The notes under the pieces were generated by a model, which searched no databases, was not told the origin of the DNA, and saw nothing but the letters and a program-made list of their open reading frames with translations. 64,000 bases of DNA from Clostridia bacterium (GTDB lineage: Bacteria > Bacillota > Clostridia > Oscillospirales > CAG-272), in NCBI GenBank assembly GCA_017387685.1, contig JAFOEU010000055.1, positions 17,602-81,601 on the forward strand. The letters run 5' to 3'. A program made the translations under genes and the position numbers. The stretch's first letter is position 1; each line of letters begins with the position of its first letter. Of this stretch, positions 1,974-61,206 are shown in pieces.

Positions 1974-2052
1974 AAAATCCCGCCGGATCCGGCGGGATTT
2001 TAACCTTCAACTATCAACTAGCAACTAGCAACTAGTAACTAGCAACTAATAA
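1974..2052 (+). repeat. hairpin + ACCTTCA + six CTAGYAA-like heptamers (probably also the mtlD terminator)
   Basis: aaaatcccgccggatccggcgggatttt, then ACCTTCA, then CTATCAA CTAGCAA CTAGCAA CTAGTAA CTAGCAA CTAATAA next to the mtlD stop. Confidence 0.8.
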
Positions 2053-2055
2053 TTA

Positions 2056-3270
2056 TTACTCCGCGTACTCATTAAGTGCCGCGATAAGCTCCGCAAAGCT
2101 TGCCTTCGCCGCGAGCATATCGTAAAATCTCTTAATAAGTGCTACGTCTGCCTCGTCGGTGATCTGCGAATACTTTGCAAGTGCTGCTGCTACGCCCTCG
2201 GTCTTTGCGCATGCGCTGACCTCTGCGCCTGCTTCGTCGCCTTCGCAGTCCCAAAGAAGTCCTGCAGCGATGCCGACAGCGAGGTATGCGGGGGTCTTTC
2301 CGCTTTCCTTAACGCAATTGAACGCGCCGACAAGTCTGTCGGAGGGGCTGAGCTTACGCTTGGTATCCTTACCTACGCGAAGGAGGGTATCCTCAAGCAG
2401 AGGATTGTCAAGGCGGGGAATAAGGTTATCAATAAAGGAAAGAAGTCCGTCAAGATCTGCGCCGTGACGCTTTGCAAGACCGCGTGCGGACTCGTCAAGC
2501 GCGCGGAGGAGGATATACTTGATCTCGGGGTCTCTGCCGACCTCGTAGATGTAGCTCAGACCCTTCTGATAGCCGAGGTACGCCATAGTCGCGTGGCCCA
2601 TATTATGAAGCATCAGCTTGCGCTCGATGTAGAAATCAAAGGGAGTAAAGGGAACAAGACCGTTCATATCGGGCGTGGGTGCGCCGACGGGACGGAATGC
2701 GGCGAGGTCTGCGGGAAGCTCGTTATAATAGTCGGTGCAGACCGCGAGGGGATTTTCGTCGGTGAATTTCTTGGGTGTGGGAGGAACGGTGATTCCTACA
2801 CAGCAGGAAACGAAGCCGATCTGCTCCTCGAAATACTCAACGAGATCCTCGGCAATATAGGGGCGGACGTAGCCGCGAAGGATCTTTTCGGAGCCGATAA
2901 GGTTTTCGCAAATGAGAATATTGAGGGGCTTCGCGCCTGCGGCATAACGCGCGGCGATACCCTTTGCAAGATTTTCGGCAACGTAGGGAAGGACGTTGAC
3001 ACCGAGAGAGGTTGCGAGAATGTCGCACTCTGCGATGAGCTTAACGACGCCGTCAACGTCGCGTCCGTTGAAGCCGGTGCAATTGCCGACCCATTCCTTG
3101 ACGTATTCGTTGCCGCGGGTAACGTAGACGGGATAACCGCCGTCCTTTTTGAGCTGTTCAACTACAGCCTCGTTGATGTCAACGAATGTCACGTCCCAGC
3201 CCGAAAGGGAAAAACGCTTACCGATAAAACCTCTGCCGATATTGCCGGCACCGTACATTATTGCTTTCAT
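2056..3270 (-). CDS. mtlD: mannitol-1-phosphate 5-dehydrogenase family protein
   Basis: MKAIMYGAGNIGRGFIG Rossmann start, CEN motif, ERKLxxxNxGHA, RVGKDTKRKLSPSDRL; AGGAG RBS before 3270. Confidence 0.8.
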   Translation of the reverse strand: MKAIMYGAGNIGRGFIGKRFSLSGWDVTFVDINEAVVEQLKKDGGYPVYVTRGNEYVKEWVGNCTGFNGRDVDGVVKLIAECDILATSLGVNVLPYVAENLAKGIAARYAAGAKPLNILICENLIGSEKILRGYVRPYIAEDLVEYFEEQIGFVSCCVGITVPPTPKKFTDENPLAVCTDYYNELPADLAAFRPVGAPTPDMNGLVPFTPFDFYIERKLMLHNMGHATMAYLGYQKGLSYIYEVGRDPEIKYILLRALDESARGLAKRHGADLDGLLSFIDNLIPRLDNPLLEDTLLRVGKDTKRKLSPSDRLVGAFNCVKESGKTPAYLAVGIAAGLLWDCEGDEAGAEVSACAKTEGVAAALAKYSQITDEADVALIKRFYDMLAAKASFAELIAALNEYAE

Positions 3271-3376
3271 TTTATATCTCCTTGAAGATTGAATACATAG
3301 ATAATTATATTTTAGCACTTTTTCGGTTGATTTGCAATACCTTTTTCAATATTAATCAAAAATTACGATGAAGGTA

Positions 3377-3408
3377 AAAAGTGCTGACCCTTGAAAGTCA
3401 GCACTTTT
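3377..3408 (-). terminator. intrinsic terminator after the M23 gene
   Basis: aaaagtgctgac-ccttgaaa-gtcagcactttt. Confidence 0.7.
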
Positions 3409-3410
3409 AA

Positions 3411-5164: not shown

Positions 5165-5185
5165 ACTATAAATTAAGGTGAAGCT

Positions 5186-7206: not shown

Positions 7207-7668
7207 AATGGGGCTGGCTCATTAAGAAAAATTTTACCAAAAGAAAGTGTATAGCTCTTCATTGATATTCACTTGGTGAAATTTGCACTAAACTGAAGTT
7301 GCGCGGGCTCCTTCCACCGCTTCCGCGGTCCCCCTCCCTCCCGGAGGGAGGCTTGGTTTGTGCAAATTCCGTCATTTCTGCGTCGCTCTTTAAACACATT
7401 TATAACTTTGCATAACAAAAAGGAATATTTTATTTGAATCAATTTGCACTCGTAATAGAGTTTCAGCAAACTTTTTCAATAAAATATTCCTATTTGCTTT
7501 TTATGGATTAAGTTAGAATGGTATTCGTCTGAATTTCCGAAGGAATTTGCAGTAACCCCTAAGCCTCCCTCCGGGAGGGAGGGGGACCACGGCAGTGGTG
7601 GAAGGAGCCCGCGCAACTTCGGGTTAGCTCATATTTTATTTATGTTAAATGAGCCAGCCTCATTTTAT
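7204..7668. repeat. nested inverted repeat / REP doublet between convergent genes
   Basis: Outer IR taaaatggggctggctcatt (7204) / aatgagccagcctcatttta (~7648); inner ~58-bp IR 7297-7354 / 7561-7619 (CCCCCTCCCTCCCGGAGGGAGGC type). Confidence 0.75.
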
Positions 7669-12802: not shown

Positions 12803-13927
12803 ATGAATACTAAGATCAAAAATATAGTCAACGTCATTGTTTTCTGTGTTGCCGTCTTCGGATTTGCTCTGCTTTGCCTCATTCTTCCGAAGCCCGAATT
12901 TCTCGACAGCGAGCGCCGTCCCGCCGCAGCCTTCCCCACTCTCAATATGGAGAGCATTATGAAGGACGGTCTTGAATACGGCGACAGCTTCATGAAGCAG
13001 TTTGACGATAAATACACCCCCGATAACTTCCCCTTCCGCGATTTCTTCCGTAATCTCAAGTCCTTTGTAAACACCTACGTTTTCAATAAGTCCGACAAGG
13101 ACGGCGTTTACGTTGTAGACGGTATTGCGGGCGAGATGCAGGAGCAGATCGATGAGGATTCGATCAAGCACGCGGCTGAAAAGCTGACCTTCATCTACGA
13201 GAAATACCTCAAAGATAAGGGAATCAAGCCCTATATGTCGATCATTCCCGACAAGGGCTACTTCCTATCCGAGGCGAACGGCTACCTTTCGATGGACTAT
13301 CAGGAATTCATCAAGCAGATGCTCTCGAACGTTGAATTTATGCAGTATATCGATATCACCGGCAAGCTTTCCGTTGAGGATTTCTACGCAAGTGACACAC
13401 ACTGGCGTCAGGAGCAGATCATCGACGTTGCAGAGACCCTTATCAACGGTATGGGCGGTAATTTCAACAGCACCTTCGAAAAGAAGGAGCTTGACGTTGA
13501 CTTCTACGGCGTATACGCAAGCCGCGCACCGAAGCCCCTTGATCCCGAAACCATCTACTACCTCACAAACGGCAACCTTGAAAACGTCAAGGTGACCGAC
13601 TGGGAGAACGGTGGCAAGGAGATCAGCCTCTACGATATGGAAAAGGCGCACGGCAAGGACGCATACGATATGTTCCTCTCGGGCGAGCTTTCGAAGGTAA
13701 CTATCGAGAACCCGAACGCAAAGACAGACCGTGAACTCGTCATCTTCCGTGATTCCTACGGCAGAAGCATCCTTCCCCTTATGGTTGAGGATTATGCGAA
13801 GATCACCGTCATCGATATCCGTTATCAGATCCCGCAGATCCTTCTGATGGGCGTTAACTTTGAGAATGCGGACGTGCTCTTCCTTTACAGCACTCTTATT
13901 CTTAATAATAGCTCTGAGCTGAAGTAA
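12803..13927 (+). CDS. DHHW family (AlgJ/PatB-like) O-acetyltransferase partner
   Basis: N-terminal TM, DNFPFRD, SDTHW, FRDSY; adjacent to MBOAT. Confidence 0.8.
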   Translation: MNTKIKNIVNVIVFCVAVFGFALLCLILPKPEFLDSERRPAAAFPTLNMESIMKDGLEYGDSFMKQFDDKYTPDNFPFRDFFRNLKSFVNTYVFNKSDKDGVYVVDGIAGEMQEQIDEDSIKHAAEKLTFIYEKYLKDKGIKPYMSIIPDKGYFLSEANGYLSMDYQEFIKQMLSNVEFMQYIDITGKLSVEDFYASDTHWRQEQIIDVAETLINGMGGNFNSTFEKKELDVDFYGVYASRAPKPLDPETIYYLTNGNLENVKVTDWENGGKEISLYDMEKAHGKDAYDMFLSGELSKVTIENPNAKTDRELVIFRDSYGRSILPLMVEDYAKITVIDIRYQIPQILLMGVNFENADVLFLYSTLILNNSSELK

Positions 13928-14110
13928 GTTATGATCTCGCTTCGCGAGAGTTATAATCCGCCTTTCAGGCGGAGTGATAATGTATTTGCCTTCGGCAAAT
14001 GTCGACTCTGACTTCTCGGCTTATGCCTCCATTTTCCTTCGGAAAACCGTCAGAGCCGCTCGCTTCGGCAAAATAAAGGTGAATTTCCGCCCCTCGGGGC
14101 GGAAATTTTC
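13928..14110 (-). repeat. leader + TTATCAC/mini-hairpin array pointing at the DHHW stop, interrupted by a ~65-nt repeat
   Basis: tctcgcttcgcgaga GTTATAA tccgcctttcaggcgga GTGATAA ... TAAAGGTG aatttccgcccctcggggcggaaatt; 14001-14062 recurs inverted at ~55519-55580. Confidence 0.75.
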
Positions 14111-14198: not shown

Positions 14199-14275
14199 GC
14201 GCCGTTAGCTCAGCCGGATAGAGTGTTTGGCTACGAACCAAAAGGCCGGGGGTTCGAGTCCCTCACGGCGCGCCA
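14199..14275 (+). tRNA. tRNA-Arg(ACG)
   Basis: Cloverleaf GCGCCGT...ACGGCGC-G-CCA; anticodon arm tttgg-ctACGaa-ccaaa; GGTTCGAG T loop. Confidence 0.95.
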
Positions 14276-19469: not shown

Positions 19470-20630
19470 TTATTCGGATAAAATGTCCGCGAGAACGGCG
19501 AGTGCTTCGTCGATCTCTTCGTAAGTGATATTGAGGGGAGGCAGGAGGCGAACCTTGTCTTTAGCGGAGAGGAAGAGAACGCCGCGCTCGATGCCCGCCG
19601 CGATGATCTCGGGGGTGGGCTTATCGGCTTTGATACCGATCATGAGTCCGAGACCGCTGACCGACTGCACGCCCTTCATTTCTGAAAGTTTTTTGAATAT
19701 ATATTCGCTCTTAGCGCGAATCTCGGTGAGGAAATTTTCGTCAAGACGGCTGATGACGTTGAGCGCGCCCGCCGCGCAAGCGGGATTTCCGCCGAAGGTC
19801 GAGCCGTGCGTGCCCGCGGAGAGCGTGTCCTTGACCTTTTCGCCGAGGATGACGGCACCGATCGGGAGTCCGCCGCCGAGTCCCTTTGCGGTCGATATGA
19901 TGTCGGGCTTGACGCCGAACTGCTCGAAAGCGTAGAGTGTACCTGTTCTGCCGTTTCCGGTCTGAACCTCGTCGGCGATGAGGAGGATATCCTTTTCCTC
20001 GCAAGCCTTCGCGATCGCGGTGACGTAGTCCTTATCAAGCGGATTGACGCCGCCCTCGCCCTGAACGAATTCGAGCATAACGGCGCAGACGTCATCGGTC
20101 AAAGCCGCGAGCATCGCATCGAGATCGTTCGCGGGGACGTGGCAGAATCCCTCGGTAAAGGGCATAAAGGTGGTGTGGAAAACGTCCTGACCCGTAGCCG
20201 CGAGGGTGGTTATGGTTCTTCCGTGGAAGGAGTTGACGAGGGTAACGATCTTGTGTCTGCCTTCGCCGTATTTGTCGAACGAGTACTTGCGCGCCGCCTT
20301 GATCGCGCCCTCGTTCGCCTCTGCGCCCGAGTTGCCGAAGAAAACGCGGCACATACCCGTGCGGTTGCAAAGCATTTCGGCGAGCTTTGCGCAGGGGGAG
20401 GTGTAGTAGAGGTTGGAGGTGTGGGAATAAGCGTTCAGCTGTGCGGTGACAGCCGCAACCCACTCGTCATCGGCATAACCGAAGGTGTTGGTCGCGATGC
20501 CCGAGCCCATGTCAATGTATTTTTTGCCGTTTACGTCGTAAGCGACCGCACCCTTACCCGAAACGATCTCGACGGGGAAACGGCGGTAAGTATTGGCGAC
20601 GTATTTATTATCAAGTTCGAAAGTATTCAT
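19470..20630 (-). CDS. argD: acetylornithine aminotransferase
   Basis: SGAEANE, SFHGRT, DEVQTG, AKGLGGG, HGSTFGGNP. Confidence 0.93.
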   Translation of the reverse strand: MNTFELDNKYVANTYRRFPVEIVSGKGAVAYDVNGKKYIDMGSGIATNTFGYADDEWVAAVTAQLNAYSHTSNLYYTSPCAKLAEMLCNRTGMCRVFFGNSGAEANEGAIKAARKYSFDKYGEGRHKIVTLVNSFHGRTITTLAATGQDVFHTTFMPFTEGFCHVPANDLDAMLAALTDDVCAVMLEFVQGEGGVNPLDKDYVTAIAKACEEKDILLIADEVQTGNGRTGTLYAFEQFGVKPDIISTAKGLGGGLPIGAVILGEKVKDTLSAGTHGSTFGGNPACAAGALNVISRLDENFLTEIRAKSEYIFKKLSEMKGVQSVSGLGLMIGIKADKPTPEIIAAGIERGVLFLSAKDKVRLLPPLNITYEEIDEALAVLADILSE

Positions 20631-20647: not shown

Positions 20648-21172
20648 AAGTTGCTAGTTGCTAGTTACTAGTTACTAGTTGAAGGTAGATTTTCTCGCCC
20701 GAAGGCGAGAAAATCAATTAATTGAAGCTTCAATTCTAGTAATTAAAGATGTAAGCATACGAGCAATCTCTTGTGATAGCTGTTTGATGGGTTTAATATT
20801 GCTTGATGAAATATAGCCGATGCGCTCGCAAATCAATAGTTGGGTGAACAATTCAGCATTTGAGCCTTTAGCTATACATAAAAATTTGAGAAATTCTTTT
20901 TGACTGTTCCTGGAATGTCCTTCGGCAATATTGGAAGGGATAGAAACTGCAGCTCGACGCATTTGATTTGTGATGCCGTATAATTCTTCTCTGGGAAAGT
21001 GTTTGGTGAGGCTATATATCTCCACAGTAAGATCCATGGCTTTTTGCCAAACGTTAAGCTGTTCATATCCTTTTGCTTCCATTATATAACCATTATTTAT
21101 TAAAAATACTTTTCGAGCAACGCGAGAAAAGTTACCTTCAACTAGTAACTAGTAACTAGCAACTAGCAACTT
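20648..21172. mobile_element. cassette bounded by a perfect 40-bp heptamer-based inverted repeat, carrying a four-helix-bundle gene
   Basis: 20648-20687 AAGTTGCTAGTTGCTAGTTACTAGTTACTAGTTGAAGGTA is the exact reverse complement of 21133-21172; AT-richer interior. Confidence 0.6.
20714..21082 (-). CDS. four helix bundle protein (23S rRNA IVS protein / Avd-like fold)
   Basis: LNVWQKAMDL, FPREELYGITNQMRRAAVSIPSNIAEG, FLCIAKGSNAEL-TQL. Confidence 0.92.
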   Translation of the reverse strand: MEAKGYEQLNVWQKAMDLTVEIYSLTKHFPREELYGITNQMRRAAVSIPSNIAEGHSRNSQKEFLKFLCIAKGSNAELFTQLLICERIGYISSSNIKPIKQLSQEIARMLTSLITRIEASIN

Positions 21173-22028
21173 ATTCCAGCACCATTGTGCCAAGACCTTC
21201 ATCTGTCAAGATCTCAATCAAAATAGAGTGCGGAACTCGTCCGTCGATGATGAAGACGCGCTTTACGCCGCCTCGGACAAGATCCGCGCATCCGTTTACC
21301 TTCGGGATCATTCCGCCCGAGATCGTTCCGTCCGTGATCATCTTATCTATATCGTCAAGGTGTATCTGCGAGATGAGAGTGGAAGGGTCGTCCTTATTCG
21401 CAAGTATGCCGGGGGTGTCGGTCAGCGAGATGAATGCCTCCGCGCCGAGTGCCGCCGCAATCTCGCCCGCCATTGTGTCGGCGTTGATATTGTAGATCTC
21501 GCCCGTCTTATCGCACGCAACGCTCGAAATTACGGGAATATAGCCCTTATTCAGCACGTCGGTAATAAGTCCAGTATTGACCTTGGTGATCTCGCCGACG
21601 TATCCGAGTGCGGGATCAAGCTCCTTGACGTGGATCATATTCGCGTCAATTCCCGAAAGTCCCACAGCAAGTCCGCCGACCGAGCCAATCAGTCCGACCA
21701 GACCCTTATTGACCTTTCCCGCGAGGACCATCGTTGCGACCTTTGCGGTCTCTGCATCGGTCACGCGGAGTCCGTTTTCGAATTTGCTCTCGATATTCAT
21801 TCTCTTGAGCGTTTCGGTCAGCGCGGGGCCGCCGCCGTGGACGAGAACTACCTTGACTCCGATGCGGTTAAGCAGTGCAACGTCGCGCATAACGTCCTCT
21901 TTGAGGCTTTCGTCGATCATCGACGAGCCGCCGTATTTGATGACGATTATTTTGTCGGTGTATTTTTTAATATATGGAAGTGCCTCGACCAGCACTTTTG
22001 CGCGGTCTGCGTTTGAAATATTTATCAT
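21171..22028 (-). CDS. argB: acetylglutamate kinase
   Basis: VIKYGG, VHGGGP, GLRVTD, NINAD, GGMIPKV, DGRVPHS. Confidence 0.95.
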   Translation of the reverse strand: MINISNADRAKVLVEALPYIKKYTDKIIVIKYGGSSMIDESLKEDVMRDVALLNRIGVKVVLVHGGGPALTETLKRMNIESKFENGLRVTDAETAKVATMVLAGKVNKGLVGLIGSVGGLAVGLSGIDANMIHVKELDPALGYVGEITKVNTGLITDVLNKGYIPVISSVACDKTGEIYNINADTMAGEIAAALGAEAFISLTDTPGILANKDDPSTLISQIHLDDIDKMITDGTISGGMIPKVNGCADLVRGGVKRVFIIDGRVPHSILIEILTDEGLGTMVLE

Positions 22029-27499: not shown

Positions 27500-27724
27500 A
27501 TGAGCAGTACTTGCAATCCTTGTTAAACGACGTTCAGAAAGCTGAACATTGAAGCTTGCGCTTTCTACTCCCCTTCCGGTTTACGGAAGGGGGCGGGGGT
27601 TGGTTCCTATTTGCCGAAACAAGATTATTAGGATATCGTGAATATCAATGTGTAGGCGCAAAATTACTTGTACGCACCCGCAGTATTTATATAATCTCTA
27701 TTTCCCTTCCGCGCCTGCGGGCGC

Positions 27725-27903
27725 GGGGGTGACAGAGCGCACTACTTCCCTACATTCGGGAAGTAGTGACTCTGTCCAAAATCCCGAAGCAGAGCTTCGT
27801 GATTTTGAAGCGCGGAAGCGCGAGCTGAAGCTCGCGCATTAGTCCGAGGCTCTGCCTCGTGCTCCGCGAACTTTTGAAAAAGTTCGATCAAAACTTTCCC
27901 GCT
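27725..27903 (+). repeat. ~170-nt multi-hairpin element, divergent copy 2
   Basis: GGGGGTGACAGAG...CTCTGTCC and conserved ending; stems differ in sequence but still pair. Confidence 0.7.
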
Positions 27904-27926
27904 TTCTTCCTTTTTATAATAATAGA

Positions 27927-28045
27927 AAATTTTCGAGCGCAGCGAGAAAATTCACCTTCATTTTGCCGAAGGCAAATTATCACTCTCGCGTAAGCGAGAT
28001 TATCACTTCGCCGCAGGCGAATTATCACTCGCGCGAAGCGCGACA
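27927..28045 (+). repeat. leader + CACCTTCA + TTATCAC/mini-hairpin array upstream of the acyltransferase RBS
   Basis: tttgccGAAggcaaa TTATCAC tctcgcgtaagcgaga TTATCAC ttcgccGCAggcgaa TTATCAC tcgcgcGAAgcgcga. Confidence 0.85.
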
Positions 28046-28060
28046 AACCAAGGAGTCCCC

Positions 28061-29269
28061 ATGAAAAAGAAACAAAAAAAGATCGGCAAACCCCTCGCCC
28101 TCCTCTACCACCCCGCCTTCCTCCTCGTCTCCCTCTACTACCGCCTCCGCTACCGCGTACATATCGACAATTCCGACCTCGATCCCGAGGCGGGTGCGGC
28201 TATCGTTCTTGCCACGCACACCTCAAACAAGGATCACTTCCTCACCGCGATGGCTCTCTATCCCCGACGCGTGACCTTCGTTATGAGTCAGCATTTCTTC
28301 GAGAAGAAGGCTCTCCGTCCCATCCTCCGTCTGATGTGCGCGATCCCGAAGAAAATGTTTTGTCCCGATGCTTCGTCGGTGCTCTCAATGATCCGCGCCA
28401 TCCGAGAGGGCAACACTCTCGTTCTATTCCCCGAGGGCAGACTGACCTGCAACGGCAAGTCCTGTCCCATCACCCCCGGCACCGCCGACCTCGTTCGCAG
28501 ACTCGGAGTTCCTGTCTACACCATAACTGCCGAGGGCGCGGGCAAGACCTTCCCGAAATGGGCAAAAAAGCCGCGTATCGGCAGAATCGACGTCCGTCTT
28601 CGCAAGCTTTTCGCGGGTCCCGAGCTGAAAAATATGGAGCTCCCCGACGTTGAGCAAGCAATAGCAGATGCAATCGCTCACAACGCGTGGGAGTCGCTTC
28701 CGAATGTAAAATTCAGATCGCGCAAGCCCGCCGAGGGACTCGACACCATCCTCTGGCGCTGCCCCCGTTGCGGCGCGGAGCACACTCTCGTCTGCAAAAA
28801 GGACACCGTCACCTGCACCCATTGTCAGCTTGAGGCGCGCGTTGACGCGCACGGACAGATCTCGGGTGTCAAAGGCATCAAGACGGTTTACGACTGGTAT
28901 GAGCACAACGCCCGAACTCTCGATCTTAATTTTCCGCTTGAGTGCGCGTGCAGTGTCAGAATTGCGCCCATCGATCCCAAAAAGAAGCAAGAATTGAGGG
29001 AAAGGCGCAAAAACGGCGCGAAGATCACCAACACGGGCGAGGGCAAGTTCTCGCTTTCGCGCGAAGGCATCGTTTTTGACGGCATCGTAAACGGCATCGG
29101 CGACCATTTTTCGCTCCTCGGCAAGGACGTCCCCGGCGCGCTCCCGATAACCCCCGGCGACCACTTCGACGTCTACTCAGGCAATGTCCTCTACTTCATC
29201 ACCCCCGAGCCCGACTCCCGCGACGCAGTAAAATTCGTCGCATATATGGATAAAATGCACGGAAATTAA
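28061..29269 (+). CDS. PlsC-like lysophospholipid acyltransferase with Zn-ribbon extension
   Basis: THTSNKD (HxxxxD), LFPEG, CPRC...CTHC. Confidence 0.8.
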   Translation: MKKKQKKIGKPLALLYHPAFLLVSLYYRLRYRVHIDNSDLDPEAGAAIVLATHTSNKDHFLTAMALYPRRVTFVMSQHFFEKKALRPILRLMCAIPKKMFCPDASSVLSMIRAIREGNTLVLFPEGRLTCNGKSCPITPGTADLVRRLGVPVYTITAEGAGKTFPKWAKKPRIGRIDVRLRKLFAGPELKNMELPDVEQAIADAIAHNAWESLPNVKFRSRKPAEGLDTILWRCPRCGAEHTLVCKKDTVTCTHCQLEARVDAHGQISGVKGIKTVYDWYEHNARTLDLNFPLECACSVRIAPIDPKKKQELRERRKNGAKITNTGEGKFSLSREGIVFDGIVNGIGDHFSLLGKDVPGALPITPGDHFDVYSGNVLYFITPEPDSRDAVKFVAYMDKMHGN

Positions 29270-31799: not shown

Positions 31800-31819
31800 A
31801 TTGTTTTATAATAAAATCG

Positions 31820-33207: not shown

Positions 33208-33889
33208 AGCGAGTGCGAACCCTCATCATTTGGGTAAAGTGATGAGTTTCTCCTACGGAGAAACGTGATGATTTGGCTTCGCCAAAGTGATGATTGCGCT
33301 TCGCGCAAGTGATGTTTCGTCCTTCGGACGAAGTTAAGGTAATTTTTCGCCGAGGCGAAAAATAATTTATTAAATGACAAGTGCGAACATAGCACACTTG
33401 GTGTCCCCTCATCACCCGCTGCGGCGGGAGCTTCTCCCAGGAGAAGCCTAGGGGGCAAGGCGGATGCCTTGCGTGAAATATTTCGCCTGCGGCGAAATGT
33501 GAAATTTTTGCTTCGCAAAAGTGAAATTCACGCTTCGCGTGAGTGAAATATTCCGCTAAAGCGGAATGTTAAGGAAGAAATTTGCCAAGGCAAATTTCAA
33601 ATTTTATAAAATCAATGTAGGCTGAACATAGAATTCGCAGTTCTAAACCTTAGGCTTCTCCTGGGAGAAGCTCCCGCCGCAGCGGGTGATGAGGGGACAC
33701 CAAGAAAGCTATGTTCGCACAAGCAATTTTTATTAAGATTGAAATTTACCTCGGCAAATTTCCACCTTAACTTCGCCCGAAGGGCGAAACATCACTTGCG
33801 CGAAGCGCAATCATCACTTTGGCGAAGCCAAATCATCACTTTTCTCCGCAGGAGAAAAACATCACTGATGATCTGTGTTCGCACTCGTT
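33208..33889. repeat. ~680-bp nested palindromic intergenic region
   Basis: Outer inverted CATCAC-linker arrays (33208-33363 / 33740-33889), inner ~70-bp REP-like inverted pair (33381-33450 / 33651-33720), central GTGAAAT-linker array (33472-33598). Confidence 0.85.
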
Positions 33890-33970
33890 TACTTACTACC
33901 TTGAACCGAAAAGCATAAAAATCAACCTCCCCGAATAATATTTCTTATCAGATATTATTCGGGGTTTTTT

Positions 33971-49658: not shown

Positions 49659-49822
49659 GGGTGAAGGAGCAAAAATCTCCCCGAGGGGAGATTTTACTCC
49701 TTCCGAACAGCCGACGGGGCGTCGTCTGTTCGAAGCACGGAGAGAATTTCGCGCTCTGCGGAGCGCGACTTAAGGAACTTTTTGAAAAAAGTTCCTTAAG
49801 AATCTTCAAAAACTTTCCCGCT
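49659..49822 (+). repeat. ~170-nt multi-hairpin element, copy 4
   Basis: Homologous to 1776-1950 and 31636-31799. Confidence 0.8.
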
Positions 49823-49844
49823 GATGTTATTTTTACTTTAATTC

Positions 49845-49988
49845 GAAAATTTTCGAGCAAAGCGAGAAAATTAACCTTCATTTTGCCGAAGGCAAATTAT
49901 CATTCGCGCGAAGCGCGATTATCACTCTGCCGCAGGCAGATTATCACTCTTGCGAAGCAAGATTATAACTCGCGCCCTCGGCGCGACA
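49845..49988 (+). repeat. leader + AACCTTCA + TTATCAC/mini-hairpin array upstream of the flavin reductase
   Basis: Five hairpins separated by TTATCA(C/T) or TTATAAC. Confidence 0.85.
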
Positions 49989-52835: not shown

Positions 52836-52942
52836 ATAGCAGAAGTAAGGTGAATTTTCGCCTTCGGCGAAAATTTTCAATAATATAATAAGTACGCTTG
52901 TCTTTTATGCAGTACAGAGTCGGCTTTTGCCGAAGGCAAATA

Positions 52943-53064
52943 CGTCGGCGGGGCGCCGCCGTTTTGAAGCGCAGGGGGTGCTTCGACCTCTGCGGAGGTC
53001 GACTTAAGGCTTCGCCTTAAGAATCCGCAAACTTTTGAAAAAGTTTGATCAAAACTTTTCCGCT
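52943..53064 (+). repeat. ~170-nt multi-hairpin element, 5'-truncated copy 5
   Basis: gtcggcggggcgccgccgttttgaagc...tcgacctctgcggaggtcga cttaaggcttcgccttaag...caaaacttttccgct. Confidence 0.75.
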
Positions 53065-53079
53065 GATGTTGTTTTTAAT

Positions 53080-53180
53080 TTAACTTCGCTTTCCGCGAAG
53101 CGGAAATTATCACTCGCTGTAAGGCGATTATCACTCTGCCGTAGGCAGATTATCACTCTCGCGCAAGCGAGAATATCACT
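53080..53180 (+). repeat. TTATCAC/mini-hairpin array running into the GH127 stop codon
   Basis: Four hairpins; the last ATATCAC contains the TCA stop complement at 53176-53178. Confidence 0.8.
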
Positions 53181-55035
53181 GCTCGCCCCGCGAGCACGGC
53201 AGCCATGCGGCAATCTCGCTTTCCCAGTCCTTACCTGCGGATTGGTAGTCGACGAGGTAGAACTTTTCACCGTTTTCGTCGGTGAATTCGAGTTTAAGGG
53301 TGTATTTTTCGTCCTCACAGATGCAGTAATCGTAGTTTTTGAAGCTATACTTACTATTTGCGTCCTTACCAAGCGAAGAATCGGCGGCGAGGGTGATAGG
53401 TCCGCGCGAGAGCGAGATGAAATTGTCGTCCTCATCGTAATGACGGACCGCGACGGGCGGCTTGCGCGTGCCGCAGGTGTTGATGTAGAGCACGTCAAGA
53501 TCCCATTTTTCCGGAAGCGTTTCGCGGATCGACATATCGAGGTCGAGTGCGATTTCGGTCGAGCCCGCTCCGACGTGATAGATCGCGTAGCCGTCCTTTT
53601 GCTTGATATTTTCATTCTGCGCCCACGCGGGAATGCGGAGCTTAAGGCAGAAATCGCATTCAGAGGTGATTTTAAGCAAAATCTTGCCGTCCGCGGGGTA
53701 TTTTGTTTCGGTTTTGATGGAAATTTTACCGCGCTCGGTGGTGATCTCCGACTCACCCTGCTCGTAGAAATTCAGGACAACACAGCCGTTATTATCAACC
53801 ACGGCGTGCTTGGCAAAGATTCCGACACCCGCCGCGCCGATGCAAACGCAGCATCCGTAATATCTTCCGTCCTCGAGGATCTGAAAACCGCCGACAGTGC
53901 GTCCTCGGCGTCCGGGGCGGAGCGGGGAATAGCTGTCGAAGGGGAGGGGGACGGGCACCATTTTGTCGAGCATATTGATCTTTGCGAATCGCTCGCGGAC
54001 GTAGCCGTCGCGGCTGACGAGCATTTTCTCATTGAGCGAGCCGAGGTAGGCGTTATAGAAGGAGTGCTCGATCGCGTCGGCGAAAACACTCTCGCCGGTC
54101 AGCATAAAGAGGCGCGAGCAGAACTTCATCCAGGTCACGGTCACGCAGGTCTCCTGCATAATGCCCTCGTAGAACTGCGTCTGTCGGGTCTTGGTGTGGT
54201 CGAAAAGCTCGTGCGTACAGCCCGAGGAGCCGATGACGGAAATTTCGCTGTCAAGAACAGCTTTTGCAAAGTTGACCACGGCTGTTTTGTACTTTTCGAT
54301 GCCCGTGACGTAGTAGAATTCAAGCAGTCCTTCAAAGCAGGACATCATCTCGTAAGCCTTCGCGACGCCGTACTGATAGGGGAGGAGCGTGTTTTCATAG
54401 GCGAGCTCAAAGACGTTGATCTCGCTGCCGCCCGATTCGACTATGTAGGCGGCGAAATCAAGATATTTCTGCGCGCCCGTCAGGTTGTAAAGACGTACCA
54501 TCGGCTCAAGGATCGAGGAAGAATTGAGACCGAGCCAATGCTTTGTAGCCTTGTTGATGTGAATTTTGCCTTCCTCTTTGCCGATGTGCGCGATTATGTA
54601 GTCGGCGGCACGGCTGATGGCGGCGATGATCTCGGATTTAAGCGCATCGTCGGAGCAGATATCGAGGTAGTATTCCAAGCCGAGGATAACGTATTTGCGG
54701 CACCAGAGATCCCACGCGCGAAATTCGGTGTCTTTTGTAAAGGAAGATATCCTGCCGTCGGGAGCGATGACGGAGATCATATCGCGAACGGTCTCGGTGA
54801 GGATGCAGAAAAGCTCCGCATCGCGGGAGTATTCGTAAACGAGGACAGCACCGCGCATCATCTTGCCCCAATATTCACCGCGCCAACCGTTGTTGACACC
54901 GTCAATGGGGCGGCGGAACTGATCGACGAAACGGCGCCACATATCACGGTCGGAGAGCTGATTTTTGGTAAGGAAATCGACAGCACGGGCGGTAAGACCC
55001 GAATATTTTTGTTTTAAGTTAAAATAATTCATCAT
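53176..55035 (-). CDS. GH127-like (beta-L-arabinofuranosidase family) glycoside hydrolase
   Basis: WRGEYWGK, KAYEMMSCFEGL, QETCVTVTWM, GCC, YP.DG.I, LRIPAW, RGPI.LA. Confidence 0.8.
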   Translation of the reverse strand: MMNYFNLKQKYSGLTARAVDFLTKNQLSDRDMWRRFVDQFRRPIDGVNNGWRGEYWGKMMRGAVLVYEYSRDAELFCILTETVRDMISVIAPDGRISSFTKDTEFRAWDLWCRKYVILGLEYYLDICSDDALKSEIIAAISRAADYIIAHIGKEEGKIHINKATKHWLGLNSSSILEPMVRLYNLTGAQKYLDFAAYIVESGGSEINVFELAYENTLLPYQYGVAKAYEMMSCFEGLLEFYYVTGIEKYKTAVVNFAKAVLDSEISVIGSSGCTHELFDHTKTRQTQFYEGIMQETCVTVTWMKFCSRLFMLTGESVFADAIEHSFYNAYLGSLNEKMLVSRDGYVRERFAKINMLDKMVPVPLPFDSYSPLRPGRRGRTVGGFQILEDGRYYGCCVCIGAAGVGIFAKHAVVDNNGCVVLNFYEQGESEITTERGKISIKTETKYPADGKILLKITSECDFCLKLRIPAWAQNENIKQKDGYAIYHVGAGSTEIALDLDMSIRETLPEKWDLDVLYINTCGTRKPPVAVRHYDEDDNFISLSRGPITLAADSSLGKDANSKYSFKNYDYCICEDEKYTLKLEFTDENGEKFYLVDYQSAGKDWESEIAAWLPCSRGEQ

Positions 55036-55157
55036 TTCGCCTCCAAAGGCTTTTTTATAATTATAACCTTTTTGAATTACGATGTCAACCCCACCGCACA
55101 AAAACAGCGGAAAAGTTTTGATCAAACTTTTTCAGAAAAGTATGCTTGCCTTCGCCC

Positions 55158-55296
55158 CGCGCCCGAAGGGCGCATGATGTTGCACTTCGTGCAAATGAAG
55201 TTGCCTGCGGCAAATGATGTTGTGCTTCGCACAAACGATGTTGCGCCCCGCGGGGGCGCAAATAAAGGAAAAAATCCGCCGCGGCGGATTTTTTTC
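55158..55296 (-). repeat. ATGATGT-linker mini-hairpin array with TAAAGG + leader hairpin
   Basis: gcgcccgaagggcgc ATGATG ttgcacttcgtgcaa ATGAAG ttgcctgcggcaa ATGATG ttgtgcttcgcacaa ... aaaaatccgccgcggcggattttt. Confidence 0.75.
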
Positions 55297-55723: not shown

Positions 55724-55996
55724 ATGCAAAGCTTTGATTATACGCTTAACTGCACCGGCGGGCTTCATGCGCGGCCGGCGGGGGCGATCGTGAATGCCGC
55801 TAAACATTTTTCCTCCGATATCCTCATCCGTAAGCTCTCCCCTGACGGTCCAAAAGAGGCGGATGCCAAACGCCTCATCTCTCTTATGAGCCTCGGCGCG
55901 AAGCGCGGGGAGACCATCACTTTTCTCATCAACGGCCCCGACGAGACCGATGCCGCAGAGAAAATGAAGCTCGTCTGCCGCGAGAGTGTGGGGTGA
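55724..55996 (+). CDS. ptsH: phosphocarrier protein HPr
   Basis: GLHARPA (His15), DAKRLISLMSLG. Confidence 0.9.
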   Translation: MQSFDYTLNCTGGLHARPAGAIVNAAKHFSSDILIRKLSPDGPKEADAKRLISLMSLGAKRGETITFLINGPDETDAAEKMKLVCRESVG

Positions 55997-56000
55997 CGGT

Positions 56001-57662
56001 ATGCCGCTTCGCGAACAGTCGAAGACAAAACGCCGCGAAATTCGCGGGATAGGCATCGGTGAATGGGCAGTCTGGGGTAAAATACGCTTCGTTTCATCGG
56101 AGATCCCCACAAAAACGCTCGCTTACCGCGGTATGCGCGAGGAAAAAGAGGCTCTTGCGTCGGCTCTTACCGAGGCGCGTGCCGAAATTGCGGCAATCGG
56201 AAGGCGCACTCTCGCCGCGGCGGGCAGGGAGGCGGCGTCAATCTTTGAAATTCACGAAATGCTCCTCTGTGATCCCGATTTTCTCGATCTCGTAAATTCC
56301 GCGATCGAGTCGGGCACCCCCGCCGCGGATGCCGTAGCGTCTGCGGGCGAGTCGCTTGCGGGCGTTTTCGAGGGGCTTGACGATGAATACCTATCTGCTC
56401 GTGCGGCTGATATGCGCGACGTCAGCTCGCGGGTGCGGCGCATTCTCCTCGGAGGCAAAAGCGAGAAAAAGAGCGGTGAAGGACAGATGATCCTTGTCGC
56501 TCGTGACCTCTCCCCCGGCGATACCGCAGGACTCGACACCGCTTGTGTGACGGGTTTTGTTACTTTTGCGGGTTCTGTCAACTCACATACCGCGATCCTT
56601 GCGCGCGCGATGGACATCCCCGCACTCGTCCGCGCCGAGGAGTTTTCAAAGGAGCTTGAAGGTGCGTCGGCGATCCTCGATCCCGAATCCGGGCGGCTTT
56701 TGATCAATCCGACGGCAGAGGAAATGAGCCGCCTTGCGGACATTACTGCCAAGCGCGAGGCTGAGCGGAGCCGACTTCGCACTCTTTCGGCACTCCCCGC
56801 CGTCACGAAAAGCGGGCGGCGCATCGCGCTTTACGCCAATATCGGCTCGCCCGCCGAGGCAGAGGCGGCACACCGAAGCGGCGCGGAGGGCATCGGGCTT
56901 TTCCGCAGTGAGTTTTTATTTATGGGCAGGGGCGATCTGCCGAGCGAGGACGAGCAATACGAGGCGTACAGCCGTGTGGCACGGCTTTTTTCGGATCGAA
57001 CGGGTCCTATCGTGATCCGAACGCTCGACGTCGGCGCGGACAAGGCACTCCCCGCGCTCGGAAGCGAAGCGGAGGACAATCCCGCGCTCGGTATGCGCGG
57101 AATCAGGCTTTGCCTTGAAAAAACCGCGATATTCCGCACCCAGCTTCGCGCCATCCTGCGCGCTTCTGCGCACGGACGGGTTGCGATAATGCTCCCGATG
57201 GTTACGAATATCGACGAAATTCGGCGCACCAAGCGTTTGATTGCCGAGGAAAAGAACCGACTTCGCTTTGAGGAGATCGAATTTGACGAAAATATCGGTG
57301 TCGGCATAATGATCGAAACGCCCGCCGCCGCGATAATGGCAAAGGAGCTCGCGGGCGAGTGCGACTTTTTCTCGGTCGGCACAAACGATCTCTTTCAGTA
57401 CACGCTTGCCGCCGACCGACAAAACTCGCGCCTCGCATATCTGACCGAAGCGGAAAGCGGTCTTGAACCCGTGCTTCGGCTCATTCGCCTTGCATCCGAC
57501 GGAATCCACGCGGCGGGCGAGGACAAATGGATAGGCATCTGCGGCGAAATGGCGGCGGACACCGCGCTGACCGAAGCACTTCTTGGTGCAGGCGCAGACG
57601 AGCTGTCGGTTTCGACGCCGTATATTGCGCGGGTGAAAGAGAAAATCAGAGGAATTGAGTAG
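56001..57662 (+). CDS. ptsI: PEP-protein phosphotransferase (PTS enzyme I)
   Basis: SHTAILAR, GIGLFRSEF, IRTLDVGADK, NPALGMRGIR, SVGTNDL, GICGE. Confidence 0.94.
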   Translation: MPLREQSKTKRREIRGIGIGEWAVWGKIRFVSSEIPTKTLAYRGMREEKEALASALTEARAEIAAIGRRTLAAAGREAASIFEIHEMLLCDPDFLDLVNSAIESGTPAADAVASAGESLAGVFEGLDDEYLSARAADMRDVSSRVRRILLGGKSEKKSGEGQMILVARDLSPGDTAGLDTACVTGFVTFAGSVNSHTAILARAMDIPALVRAEEFSKELEGASAILDPESGRLLINPTAEEMSRLADITAKREAERSRLRTLSALPAVTKSGRRIALYANIGSPAEAEAAHRSGAEGIGLFRSEFLFMGRGDLPSEDEQYEAYSRVARLFSDRTGPIVIRTLDVGADKALPALGSEAEDNPALGMRGIRLCLEKTAIFRTQLRAILRASAHGRVAIMLPMVTNIDEIRRTKRLIAEEKNRLRFEEIEFDENIGVGIMIETPAAAIMAKELAGECDFFSVGTNDLFQYTLAADRQNSRLAYLTEAESGLEPVLRLIRLASDGIHAAGEDKWIGICGEMAADTALTEALLGAGADELSVSTPYIARVKEKIRGIE

Positions 57663-57670: not shown

Positions 57671-57812
57671 AATCTCGCTTCGCGAGAGTGATAATCTCGC
57701 TTCGCTCGAGTGATAATCCGCCTTCGGCGGAGTGATAATCTCGCTTCGCGAGAGTGATAATTTGCCCCTTGGGGGCAAAATGAAGGTAAATTTTTGCTTC
57801 GCAAAAATTTTC
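57671..57812 (-). repeat. GTGATAA/mini-hairpin array + TGAAGGT + leader after the ptsI stop
   Basis: Five hairpins separated by GTGATAA; inverted partner at 58606-58689. Confidence 0.85.
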
Positions 57813-58605: not shown

Positions 58606-58689
58606 TTTTCGCGAAGCAAAATTATCACTCCGCCGAAGGCGGATTATCACTCTCACGAAGTGAGATTATCACTCGCGCAAAGCGCGACA
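58606..58689 (+). repeat. TTATCAC/mini-hairpin array upstream of the EIIA gene
   Basis: TTATCAC tccgccGAAggcgga TTATCAC tctcacGAAgtgaga TTATCAC tcgcgcaaagcgcga. Confidence 0.85.
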
Positions 58690-58704
58690 GAAAGGAACAA
58701 AATT

Positions 58705-59154: not shown

Positions 59155-59181
59155 ACGAAATAAAGGTGAATTTTAATCAAA

Positions 59182-59263
59182 AGCAAGTGTGAACAAAGCG
59201 TTCTCGATGTTCCCTCCGCAGAGGGTGATGAGGGGACACCGAGAACGCTTTGTTCGCACTTGC
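59182..59263. repeat. collapsed REP-like hairpin of the same family as 33381-33720
   Basis: gcaagtgtgaacaaagcgttctcg ... gggtgatgaggggacac cgagaacgctttgttcgcacttgc. Confidence 0.7.
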
Positions 59264-59313
59264 AAACGACACTGTACATTACTTAATACGGGTAAAAGAA
59301 AGGAATTTTTAAT

Positions 59314-60960
59314 ATGAACGCAACAAAATCTGCTCCCGAGAAGCGCGATTCGAGGCTTTTTGGGGTGCTTCAAAGGGTCGGGCGATCGTTTATGCTCCCG
59401 ATCGCGCTATTGCCGATCGCGGGTCTCCTGCTCGGAGTCGGCGCGTCGCTGACGAATGCGGCAATGATCGAAAGCTACAATCTCGAGAGTATTCTCGGCG
59501 AGGGAACGGTGCTCAATTGGATTTTGACAGTCCTATCGGCGGTCGGCTCGATCATTTTCGACAATCTGCCGATCATTTTTGCAATGGGTGTCGCACTCGG
59601 TATGGCGGAAAGCGAAAAGGCGACCGCAACTCTCTCGGCAGCGATCGCGTTTTTCGTAATGCACGCGACGATCTCAACTCTCCTCGACCTCACCGGCAAG
59701 GCGACCGACGGAAGCCTCCACGAGGGAAGTATCGCGCAGGTCGTCGGCATCAACTCGCTCCAGATGGGCGTTTTCGGCGGAATAATCGTCGGTCTCGGCG
59801 TCGCCGCGCTCCATAACAAGTTCTATAAGATCAAGCTCCCCACCGTCATCTCCTTTTTCGGCGGCACGCGGTTTATTCCGATCATTTCGACGGTCGTTTA
59901 CGTCGTGGTCGGCGCTGTGATGTTCTTCGTTTGGCCCTTTATTCAGGAGGGAATCTTCGCGCTCGGTAATCTCGTGCTGAATTCAGGGTACGTCGGTACG
60001 GCGATCTACGGTTTTATCGAGCGAATTCTCATTCCCTTCGGACTTCATCACGTTTTCTACCTGCCATTCTGGCAGACGGGCGTGGGCGGTAACGCGATCG
60101 TGGACGGAAATCTCATCATGGGCGCGCAGAATATCTTCTTTGCCGAGCTTGCAAGCCCCTCGACCGAGGTCTTTTCGGTGTCGGCAACGAGATTTATGTC
60201 GGGTAAATTCCCCTTTATGATCTTCGGACTCCCCGGCGCGGCGCTTGCGATGTATACGACAGCGAAGCGCGAGCGCCGCAAGATCGCGGGCGGACTTCTG
60301 CTTTCGGCATCCCTCACGGCAATGCTGACGGGAATCACCGAGCCGATCGAGTTCACCTTTCTCTTCGTCGCGCCCGCGCTCTACCTTTTCCATTCGCTTT
60401 TTGCGGGACTTTCCTATATGTTCACGCACGTATTCAACGTCGGCGTCGGAATGACATTCTCGGGCGGTATCATCGACCTTTTGCTATTCGGAGTGCTTCA
60501 AGGCAACGAAAAGACGAACTGGACGGCAATAATTCCGATAGGAATCGCGTATTTTATCCTCTATTTCCTGCTTTTCAGATTTATGATAAGGAAATTCGAC
60601 TACCTCACGCCCGGCAGAGAAGAGGACGGCGAAACGAAGCTCTATACTCGTGCGGACTATAACGAAAAGAAAAAATCCGAGGTCGCGGGCGAGCCTCAGA
60701 TGTCGGCGGCGGACGTCGGACTTGAAAGCACGTCATCCCTCATAGTGCGCGGACTCGGTGGGCGGGAGAATATCAAGAACGTCGATTGCTGTGCGACCCG
60801 TCTGCGAGTGACCGTAAACGATTCAGCGCTCGTGAACGATGCTCTGCTGAAAAAAAGCGGCGCAGCGGGAGTGATCAGGCGAGGAAGCGGAGTTCAGGTA
60901 GTGTACGGTCCGCAGGTAAGCGTGATCAAGAGTGAGCTGGATGAGTTTTTGAAGGGGTGA
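59314..60960 (+). CDS. PTS glucose/maltose-family EIICB component
   Basis: LQRVGRSFMLPIALLP, PFGLHH, GITEPIEF, TPGRE linker, DCCATRLR. Confidence 0.92.
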   Translation: MNATKSAPEKRDSRLFGVLQRVGRSFMLPIALLPIAGLLLGVGASLTNAAMIESYNLESILGEGTVLNWILTVLSAVGSIIFDNLPIIFAMGVALGMAESEKATATLSAAIAFFVMHATISTLLDLTGKATDGSLHEGSIAQVVGINSLQMGVFGGIIVGLGVAALHNKFYKIKLPTVISFFGGTRFIPIISTVVYVVVGAVMFFVWPFIQEGIFALGNLVLNSGYVGTAIYGFIERILIPFGLHHVFYLPFWQTGVGGNAIVDGNLIMGAQNIFFAELASPSTEVFSVSATRFMSGKFPFMIFGLPGAALAMYTTAKRERRKIAGGLLLSASLTAMLTGITEPIEFTFLFVAPALYLFHSLFAGLSYMFTHVFNVGVGMTFSGGIIDLLLFGVLQGNEKTNWTAIIPIGIAYFILYFLLFRFMIRKFDYLTPGREEDGETKLYTRADYNEKKKSEVAGEPQMSAADVGLESTSSLIVRGLGGRENIKNVDCCATRLRVTVNDSALVNDALLKKSGAAGVIRRGSGVQVVYGPQVSVIKSELDEFLKG

Positions 60961-61042
60961 TTTCGCTTGCAGAAAAAGGATTCAGAACCTATATTTGCGC
61001 ACTTAATTGGGTGTTGAAAGCGTTCGTTCGGGTTAAAAATAT

Positions 61043-61206
61043 CACGCCGAAGGCGTGTATATCATCAATTCCGAAGGAATTGCATATCATCAACACGAAG
61101 TGTTGTATATCATCAAGCCGCAAAAATACACGCTTCGCGTGATGATATACGCCTTCGGCGATGATATACACGCTTCGCGTGATGATATACCAAGCCTGCG
61201 GCTTGG
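61043..61206. repeat. head-to-head TATATCATC / GATGATATAC-linker mini-hairpin arrays
   Basis: GAA-loop hairpins with TATATCATC linkers on the left, TTC-loop hairpins with GATGATATAC linkers on the right. Confidence 0.8.

Follow-up and report, generated by a model that had tools for sequence, protein, structure and literature searches.

Repeated extragenic DNA at gene boundaries is known from several bacterial systems. The REP, BIME and REPIN sequences are mosaics of extragenic palindromes with short constant linkers, which lie at gene 3' ends and occur as many non-autonomous copies per cognate gene, and the cyanobacterial STRR are comparable to heptameric repeats. Here we describe the repeat arrays in a 64,000-nucleotide stretch of DNA from a Clostridia bacterium (contig JAFOEU010000055.1 of assembly GCA_017387685.1, positions 17,602 to 81,601; the whole stretch is called the window below and coordinates are counted from its first letter), in which tandem 7-nt words or small hairpins stand next to a conserved core and a larger hairpin, and in one place bracket a gene for an S23p-type four-helix-bundle protein.

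Four other described systems resemble these arrays or the protein. Gut-1 was listed as a probable non-coding RNA, found only in human gut metagenomes and with no function given (Weinberg 2010, PMC2864571). The GGGNATC heptamers of Xanthomonas and Nostoc prefer approximately four units, form frequent inverted pairs and lie no more than 50 bp after stop codons (sense) or before open reading frames (ORFs; antisense), and the preference for four units was ascribed to G-quadruplexes (Rehm 2015, PMC4692102). The intervening sequences (IVS) of Coxiella, Leptospira and others consist of a terminal-inverted-repeat stem around an S23p ORF and are cut by RNase III, and the Xanthomonas S23p protein is quoted as a homopentameric toroid (PMC4990558). 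Finally Avd, the protein of diversity-generating retroelements (DGRs), is a barrel of five protomers that carries positive charge and binds an RNA stem-loop, bases of which are flipped into the crevices separating one protomer from the next (bioRxiv 10.1101/2023.10.23.563531). In our searches, which covered a collection of open-access papers, we found none joining S23p genes to Gut-1 or to heptamer arrays, and S23 is mentioned 0 times in the accessible text of the heptamer paper (PMC4692102).

When compared with these systems, the arrays of the window are probably the repeat arms of a family of IVS-like elements and of its gene-less derivatives. A complete member would have two inverted arms of about five 7-nt words each, the words being contiguous or separated by 15-nt mini-hairpins with G..A loops; on each side a conserved core and a larger hairpin would follow, and between the hairpins would lie a gene of the S23p type, a family that occurs inside the intervening sequences of 23S rRNA and has Avd of the DGRs as a relative. 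The hairpin-spaced form would be Rfam's Gut-1. The window appears to hold one complete member (20649-21171), its other arrays being presumably gene-less two-armed copies or solo arms. The parts of the complete member are:

20649-20686, minus strand: left arm, heptamer words and core, 18 nt before the start codon of an aminotransferase (gene 19470-20630).
20688-20715, unstranded: subterminal hairpin.
20714-21082, minus strand: S23p (four-helix-bundle) gene of 122 aa with matches to PF05635, TIGR02436 and PDB 2gsc_A.
21108-21132, unstranded: second subterminal hairpin.
21134-21171, plus strand: right arm, core and heptamer words, with a 1-nt overlap with the stop codon of the amino-acid-kinase gene 21171-22028.

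The S23p gene is bracketed exactly by the arrays at 20650 and 21142, and the order of the element is amino-acid-kinase stop codon, heptamer arm, core, hairpin, S23p gene, hairpin, core, heptamer arm and aminotransferase ribosome-binding site. The two arms are inverted complements with 52 matches over a 55-nt alignment. The minimum free energy of the element RNA was -170.2 kcal/mol, as compared with -110.6 +/- 5.9 kcal/mol in shuffled sequences (z-score -10), and in the corresponding structure the arms are paired and form a long stem around the ORF. A gene for RNase III is present in the genome. The gene product matched PF05635 with 143.6 bits, TIGR02436 ("four helix bundle protein") with 139.9 bits and PDB 2gsc (chain A) with an E-value of 3.7e-26; 2gsc and 2rld contain five chains each. 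A check for defence systems with PADLOC gave no match for this gene.

A weak similarity (E 0.004) was also seen between the S23p protein of the window and residues 134-242, in the C-terminal part, of a chain named "DNA ligase subunit B" (248 aa; PDB 9hu3_B / 9i5i), a possible hint that the S23p fold acts together with nucleic-acid enzymes other than reverse transcriptase.

The likeness to the IVS covers the size (about 430-520 nt), the terminal inverted repeats forming a long stem, the S23p ORF in the loop, the patchy distribution and the reading as a selfish element. The differences are in the context and in the arms: the element at 20649-21171 lies in an mRNA context, between the protein-coding genes 19470-20630 and 21171-22028, and not in a 23S rRNA helix, the elements described here lie between protein-coding genes or behind tRNA genes, and the arms are 7-nt words or hairpin arrays with subterminal hairpins and a core. 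With Avd the protein shares the fold family, but it reached only 26.4 bits against a cut-off of 80 for NF033474, and the genome gave 0 matches to RVT_1.

The occurrence of the S23p gene was compared with that of the arrays. All six PF05635 (23S_rRNA_IVP) genes of the genome (2.58 Mb in 116 contigs, 85% complete) are inside or beside arrays, which is the co-occurrence with a four-helix-bundle gene that the preliminary description had proposed for testing. Besides the gene described above, one is bracketed by heptamer arms, one has a hairpin array on each side, and the last three each follow a tRNA-type gene with a terminator and two hairpin arrays in palindromic arrangement, the start of one of them being about 900 nt beyond the end of the window. 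The other partners that had been proposed for testing, a RAYT/HUH or a reverse transcriptase gene, did not appear: we found 0 matches to Y1_Tnp (PF01797) in the 85%-complete genome, with positive results in control genomes, and, as mentioned above, none to RVT_1.

Among the genomes of the genus 26 of 38 have PF05635, and a strict array (at least four words, at most one mismatch, period 7 or 19-25) was present no more than 300 nt from the gene at 22 of the 32 readable loci, as compared with 47 of 600 random genes of the present genome; by eye nearly all of the 32 loci have an array. Inverted arms that bracket the gene (at least 25 nt, at least 85% complementarity) were found at 13 of 30 genus loci. 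Of 151 genomes of the order, 58 contain both Gut-1 and PF05635 and 70 contain neither of them; 10 have Gut-1 without PF05635 and 13 the reverse (odds ratio 31, Fisher p 2e-18, a value that overstates the case because related genomes are not independent), and over 30 families the two fractions are correlated with a Spearman rho of 0.70. In nine listed cases from eight genomes a PF05635 gene is preceded on its own strand, at a distance of 138-231 nt, by a Gut-1 match. It fits these results that the preliminary description had proposed the arrays as ends of non-autonomous cassettes or as protein-binding sites, since they are probably the arms of elements with a four-helix-bundle gene.

At one further locus, found in four relatives (L315, L317, L335 and L337), an S23p gene with TTTTGCA-type arms lies between two genes that we take, by eye, to be rpsO and pnp. 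In E. coli it is the RNase III processing of the rpsO-pnp spacer that controls pnp.

The arrays themselves were then quantified. Tandem Repeats Finder listed 15 of the 16 arrays named in the preliminary description, and the remaining one (13930, three hairpins) could be seen directly in the sequence. The listed arrays are:

Heptamer arrays: 2008-2048, 20649-20681, 21139-21171 and 29352-29369.
Arrays of period 21-23: 27958-28043, 31875-31938, 33265-33314, 33495-33549, 33770-33842 and 49884-49975.
Further arrays of period 21-23: 53106-53186, 55174-55244, 57671-57761, 58621-58674, 61056-61116 and 61126-61190.

They have one common grammar, as had been proposed, in which a hairpin is followed by a 7-nt core and about four 7-nt words that are bare or separated by mini-hairpins. 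What had been said of the linkers, of the degenerate leaders and of the head-to-head pair at 61043 was likewise correct. The core ACCTTCA occurs 24 times in the window, against an expectation of 5.0 +/- 2.4 (0 of 100 shuffles reached 24), and 7 of the 24 sites are associated with arrays. The scan for leader, core and array that had been suggested detected 117 modules of hairpin, ACCTTCA-type core and periodic array in the genome, of which 18 have an unclassified array, some of these 18 being false; the gene calls were crude and based on ORFs, and the array detectors were custom and crude as well. Perfect mini-hairpin chains of at least three numbered 441 genome-wide as compared with 159 in a block-shuffled genome, and those of at least five numbered 38 as compared with 0; genome-wide 46 mini-hairpin chains have homogeneous (near-identical) linkers. 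The linkers of hairpin arrays include TTATCAC, CATCAT, TATATCAT and others.

The commonest arrays are bare heptamers, with CTAGYAA in 65 modules and CTCTGCA in 14. Their length is narrowly distributed: 24 of the 65 CTAGYAA arrays are exactly 31 nt long, corresponding to four full units and the beginning of a fifth, and 41 of the 65 are 30-34 nt long. Since the core, on the opposite strand, starts with the same letters as the array units and keeps the period of 7, there are five words per arm. The likeness to the Xanthomonas and Nostoc heptamers is close with respect to the 7-nt units, the preference for about four of them, the common occurrence of inverted pairs and the placement at stops and starts (84 and 32 modules, see below). 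The commonest units here have no runs of G, a G-rich dialect being present in two relatives, and the G-quadruplex account of the number four can therefore not apply to them. About 20 pairs of gene-less modules in the genome face outward with their cores 64-234 nt apart, and the remaining gene-less modules are, according to the detector, solo arms; gene-less copies outnumber gene-carrying ones approximately 20 to 1.

The preliminary description knew of no named element with this grammar, a statement that holds only in part, since the hairpin arrays match Gut-1 and heptamer arrays with the same placement have been published (PMC4692102). With the Gut-1 model (RF01706) the array at 33471-33554 scored 54.8 bits, above the gathering score of 50, and nine other arrays of the window scored 22-48 bits, below the cut-off, all on the strand opposite to that of the preliminary description. 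The genome as a whole has 51 matches with an E-value of at most 1. In the order Gut-1 is found in 68 of 151 genomes and 43 of 96 genera, often with more than 10 copies and with up to 29 scored per genome. The arrays are like Gut-1 in having at least three mini-hairpins with GUGAAAU-type 7-nt linkers. They differ in that Gut-1 is here a single dialect of a repeat which is present in many copies, uses many other linkers and also has a form free of hairpins, and in being tied to S23p genes and, in other genera, to the 3' side of tRNA or tmRNA genes. There, the 20 top-scoring copies lie just behind a tRNA, tmRNA or similar gene with its terminator, and they are the first arm of a palindromic array pair. 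The best copies (about 90 bits; L253-L272), which follow tRNA-Tyr, tRNA-Pro, tRNA-Cys, tmRNA or similar genes, are nearly identical over several families of the order, indicating either horizontal spread or a very strong constraint. An integrated mobile element at the tRNA genes was considered and rejected, as ordinary genes and no integrase were found downstream of canonical Gut-1 copies in five other genomes (L273-L277).

It is clear from the placement of the modules that they point outward to gene boundaries, as had been described for the window. Of the classified modules 95 are flanked by a gene at either end, and in these the median distance from the array end to the neighbouring gene was 5 nt (at most 10 nt in 47 of the 95), and the median distance on the hairpin side was 181 nt (at most 10 nt in 2 of the 95). 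When all 117 modules are considered, 84 abut a convergent stop codon, 32 a co-directional start and 1 no gene. Consequently most modules read, on the strand of the gene, as stop codon, array, core, hairpin and T-rich tail. The consensus immediately past the hairpin is T-rich, a tail of at least five T in 8 nt is present in 40 of the 117 modules on the gene-sense strand as compared with 4 of 117 on the opposite strand, and a terminator scan flagged three leaders of the window on the gene-sense strand.

Several other ideas were tried and rejected. The flanking genes are unrelated housekeeping genes, which speaks against a shared regulon. From the sequence it was also considered whether the core might mimic an anti-Shine-Dalgarno sequence and whether the AT-rich tract ahead of the leader might conceal a promoter, and neither found support in any test. 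A device that places stops in all three frames would fit CTAGYAA and most linkers and fails, by reading, for CTCTGCA, and for a HutP-type reader of UAG-N4 no HutP gene was found. RNA contigs from two runs (shares 0.08 and 0.07) were set aside as evidence of expression; they are mostly 90-95% identical to the window and therefore derive from relatives and from repeat copies elsewhere, and they give neither strand nor ends nor a usable depth. A bias towards one replication strand was considered as well, but in this fragmented genome gene orientation is not followed by GC skew (542 vs 559 genes), which prevented the assignment of replichores.

The other features of the window are:

1974-2001, unstranded: hairpin ("leader"), reads as the intrinsic terminator of the minus-strand gene 2056-3318.
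2003-2050, plus strand: core ACCTTCA and CTAGYAA heptamer array, 7 nt from the stop codon of a convergent mannitol-dehydrogenase-like gene.
13930-14080, minus strand: three mini-hairpins in an array that immediately follows the stop of gene 12803-13927, core at 14074-14080; the first hairpin is split by another repeat, and a tRNA-Arg lies at 14199-14275.
27928-28043, plus strand: hairpin and core, then four mini-hairpins with TTATCAC linkers; an acyltransferase ATG follows after 17 nt.
29322-29385, plus strand: hairpin and core variant, then TTATCAC twice as a bare word and a single mini-hairpin; the ATG at 29401 follows after 15 nt.
31821-31941, plus strand: hairpin and core, then four mini-hairpins with TTATCAC; the MgsA/RarA-like gene 31968-33200 follows.
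33237-33363, minus strand: hairpin array, core variant and hairpin after the MgsA stop; outer left arm of a nested palindrome.
33471-33598, minus strand: array with GTGAAAT-type linkers (as read on the plus strand), core variant and hairpin; the Gut-1 match above the cut-off.
33741-33866, plus strand: hairpin and core variant, then four mini-hairpins; a P-type ATPase gene follows, and the array is the nested palindrome's outer right arm.
49848-49986, plus strand: hairpin, core and five mini-hairpins before a flavin-reductase-like gene (ATG at 50003).
53090-53196, plus strand: five mini-hairpins with no clear leader; they overlap with the stop codon of a convergent GH127 gene (53176-55125); Gut-1 48.2 bits.
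55159-55294, minus strand: five mini-hairpins (ATGATG-type linkers, as read on the plus strand) and a terminator-like hairpin.
57671-57811, minus strand: five mini-hairpins, core at 57781-57787 and hairpin, beginning 9 nt past the stop of gene 55986-57662.
58606-58687, plus strand: four mini-hairpins (TTATCAC), 18 nt before a PTS EIIA ATG (58705).
61043-61238, unstranded: head-to-head array pair (TATATCAT-type words), followed by a terminator shared with a convergent tRNA-Arg (61241-61317).

The repeat that splits the first hairpin of the array at 13930 is a dispersed repeat of about 60 nt at 14013-14073, itself a hairpin with a short inner hairpin. It recurs in or just after the first mini-hairpin past the core, as if this were an insertion site, and copies are present in contigs C1 and C7 of this genome, in L013 and in contig C24 of the relative G168. 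The three arrays within 33210-33890 make up one nested palindrome of about 680 nt with outermost inverted repeats of 11-12 nt. Many leader hairpins are preceded by a mosaic in which four to five different hairpins are combined (length about 200-250 nt; examples at 27700-27925, 31640-31820, 49660-49845 and 52940-53080), which is a dispersed repeat with dozens of copies in the genome and its relatives. A large hairpin-forming element of another kind is the near-perfect long inverted repeat of about 320 nt at 7298-7617, which gave 82.7 and 80.2 bits with plant microRNA models on the two strands, far below their cut-offs, and has copies elsewhere in G168 and G169.

The turnover of the arrays was followed at MgsA/RarA-like loci with 95-99% protein identity from uncultured Clostridia and Eubacteriales of ruminant hindguts, and on the syntenic contigs of the nearest genome, G168, whose genes have 83-91% DNA identity. 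The relatives keep the leader hairpin and the core that precede the MgsA gene, and the array varies: four hairpins with TTATCAC in the window, four with TCATCAT (L098), four with TAACCAT (L099), CTAGYAA heptamers (L093), CTAGYCA heptamers (L097) or a single hairpin (L095 and L096). At these loci all linkers of an array change together, while the intervening stems stay distinct. Of the nested palindrome at 33210-33890 nothing is present in L093 and L101, and L013, where the protein is 99% identical, retains about 60 nt.

In G168 the arrays at 2003, 13930, 20650, 21142, 29346, 33240-33866 and 55170 have no counterpart. At 2003 it has the hairpin only, with neither core nor array, and the site of 20649-21171 carries other repeats and no such S23p element. 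Unit number at orthologous sites is polymorphic, as had been suspected, G168 having fewer hairpins at 27954 (1 vs 4), 49880 (2 vs 5) and 53090 (3 vs 5); its arrays at 31855, 57670 and 58610 have another word. The array pair at 61043 is kept, with five compensated base-pair changes in three stems. Arrays are accordingly gained, lost, resized and re-worded between close relatives. The G168 contigs end at two repeat-rich spacers of the window, which shows that the repeats break assemblies. Besides, G168 contig C22, the orthologue of 27575-28061, carries two insertions ahead of the acyltransferase gene, an additional gene (about 1 kb) and a second hairpin mosaic.

The words of the arms go along with the gene. 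One S23p subfamily has CTAGYAA-like and GTCCACT-like arms, a second has TGCA-containing words and a third has CATCAT hairpin arrays. At one orthologous S23p locus, with the same upstream gene on one side and what we presume, by eye, to be a TPP-riboswitch leader on the other, the flanking word is TTATCAC in the present genome (G000), CTTAAC in G004 and G017, TAACCAT in G009 and TCATCAT in G179. For G000, G004 and G009 the word at this locus is also the commonest or joint-commonest word in the dispersed gene-less hairpin arrays (196-283 kb sampled for the relatives). As judged from these words, the dispersed gene-less copies evidently follow the gene-carrying copies.

The stems were analyzed for 1048 pairs in 179 linker-delimited units. 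Watson-Crick pairs made up 1019 of the 1048, with 16 G.A or A.G, 6 G.T and 2 A.C pairs, and on the strand used in the preliminary description the loop was GAA in 108 units, while 18 units had GCA and 16 a GNRA-like loop, G..A loops being present in 154 of the 179. An attempt to assign the RNA strand from wobble pairs was given up, as 8 of 1048 (6 G.T and 2 A.C) are too few to decide. Orthologous stems had, by reading, nine compensated and three uncompensated pair changes, which indicates that the stem structure of the hairpin arrays is maintained.

Putting these results together, we infer that most copies would be co-transcribed with the upstream gene as stop codon, array, core, hairpin and U-rich tail, and that the transcribed element would serve as a 3' end, or as an RNase III-type processing stem if both arms are present. 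The gene-less copies would descend from gene-carrying ones, and most copies of either kind may be used, or at least tolerated, by the host as transcript 3' ends. The words may be the cognate binding sites of the pentameric S23p protein, and the five words per arm would fit the five protomers of S23p. Going further, we tentatively suggest as a possibility, and a doubtful one, that S23p/Avd-like pentameric toroids read five-word arrays in a sequence-specific way, each protomer taking one 7-nt word while the mini-hairpins are looped out as spacers, so that protein and array would be self-propagating or self-regulating in the manner of RAYT with REPINs.

A number of observations weigh against the proposal that the arrays are arms of S23p elements which end transcripts. 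Only 40 of the 117 hairpins passed a simple U-tract rule, and the strand favoured by the G..A loops, by the tandem G.A mismatches of many leader hairpins and by the few wobble pairs is, in 84 of 116 modules, the antisense strand of the abutting gene. No PF05635 match was found in 10 of the 68 Gut-1-positive genomes, one of them 98% complete, and for the 14 CTCTGCA modules and the GTGAAAT arrays the 85%-complete assembly has no resident S23p gene with that word. The dominant dispersed word of G017 is TTATCAT, which differs from the word at its orthologous S23p locus. Since gene and arms are physically linked, common descent suffices to explain their co-variation, which therefore does not prove recognition. 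Finally, the searches of the genome with PF01797 and RVT_1 found no enzyme able to move the elements, and no clean target-site duplication was seen when filled and empty sites of the relatives were compared.

The alternative that survives best, although we regard it as unlikely, is that the arrays are short tandem repeats which arose and change in size by replication slippage beside terminator hairpins, and which act, like the heptamers of Xanthomonas and Nostoc, as neutral or mildly useful spacers with no dedicated protein, the nearness to S23p genes being incidental and due to permissive intergenic DNA. The different unit numbers at orthologous sites (4 vs 1, 5 vs 2 and 5 vs 3) are what slippage would give, the word nearest to the hairpin overlaps the core and resembles the other words, and the published heptamers (PMC4692102) share both the placement and the preference for four units. 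A slippage equilibrium would however not be expected to give the narrow lengths of the heptamer arrays (24 of 65 at exactly 31 nt), nor to keep the arms around S23p genes complementary down to the C/T pattern, and it is difficult to reconcile with the excess of strict arrays at S23p loci over control genes (22/32 vs 47/600) and with linkers that change jointly within an array while its stems remain distinct.

We give little credence to the idea that the arrays are REP/BIME-like palindromic units which fold in single-stranded DNA and owe their spread to an HUH transposase of the RAYT or IS200/IS605 type. The arrays do share with REP and BIME the clustering of extragenic imperfect palindromes with constant linkers at gene ends, the nearly all Watson-Crick stems with very few wobble pairs would suit DNA, and the GAA and GCA loops are closed by C-G, which makes hairpins exceptionally stable in DNA. 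The units are much smaller, however (15-nt hairpins and 7-nt words), no RAYT gene was found in the 85%-complete genome (0 Y1_Tnp matches, as mentioned above), and the repeats track the PF05635 genes instead. As a candidate partner the four-helix-bundle toroid differs from RAYT in that no catalytic activity is known for it.

That the arrays are stand-alone small RNA genes, as Gut-1 was first classified (Weinberg 2010, PMC2864571), with the GUGAAAU-linker strand transcribed and the hairpin as terminator, we hold to be quite improbable. It is true that the Rfam match is on that strand, that a terminator-like hairpin follows there and that the stems are kept by compensated changes. Against this stand the copy numbers (51 in the genome and up to 29 scored per genome elsewhere), the replacement of hairpin arrays by bare heptamers at the same site and the presence or absence of arrays among relatives whose flanking proteins are 95-99% identical; furthermore, the arrays start a few nt past stop codons or end at ribosome-binding sites, which would leave no room for promoters. 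As judged from the arrays themselves, almost no weight can be given to a CRISPR-like recorder that adds single units beside a fixed leader, an idea of the preliminary description that draws on the conserved leader and core at one end and on the homogeneous constant part, since that constant part is 6-9 nt long as opposed to CRISPR repeats of 23-50 nt with unique spacers, the variable parts are self-complementary stems from a small repertoire of palindromes, often in the same order in different arrays, the array size is nearly fixed, and orthologous arrays differ by replacement of the words of a whole array.

The picture that the preferred reading gives is that of a fast-changing, selfish-looking family of elements, built around the gene of a small ring-forming protein, whose arms are now mostly gene-less. 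S23p has been without a function since its discovery in the intervening sequences of rRNA, Gut-1 has been an orphan since 2010, and the heptamers at gene boundaries have been unexplained; if the three belong together, these questions are joined into one that can be tested with a protein of 122 residues and an arm of 38 nt. If the toroids do read the arrays, this would give a common explanation for the function of the IVS protein, for the Gut-1 motif and for the preference of heptamer repeats for about four units, and it would explain why the linkers of an array change jointly between species. For annotation it means that in an order of uncultured gut Clostridia these repeats occupy a large share of the intergenic DNA and break assemblies, and that they supply 3' ends and 5' leaders to ordinary genes.

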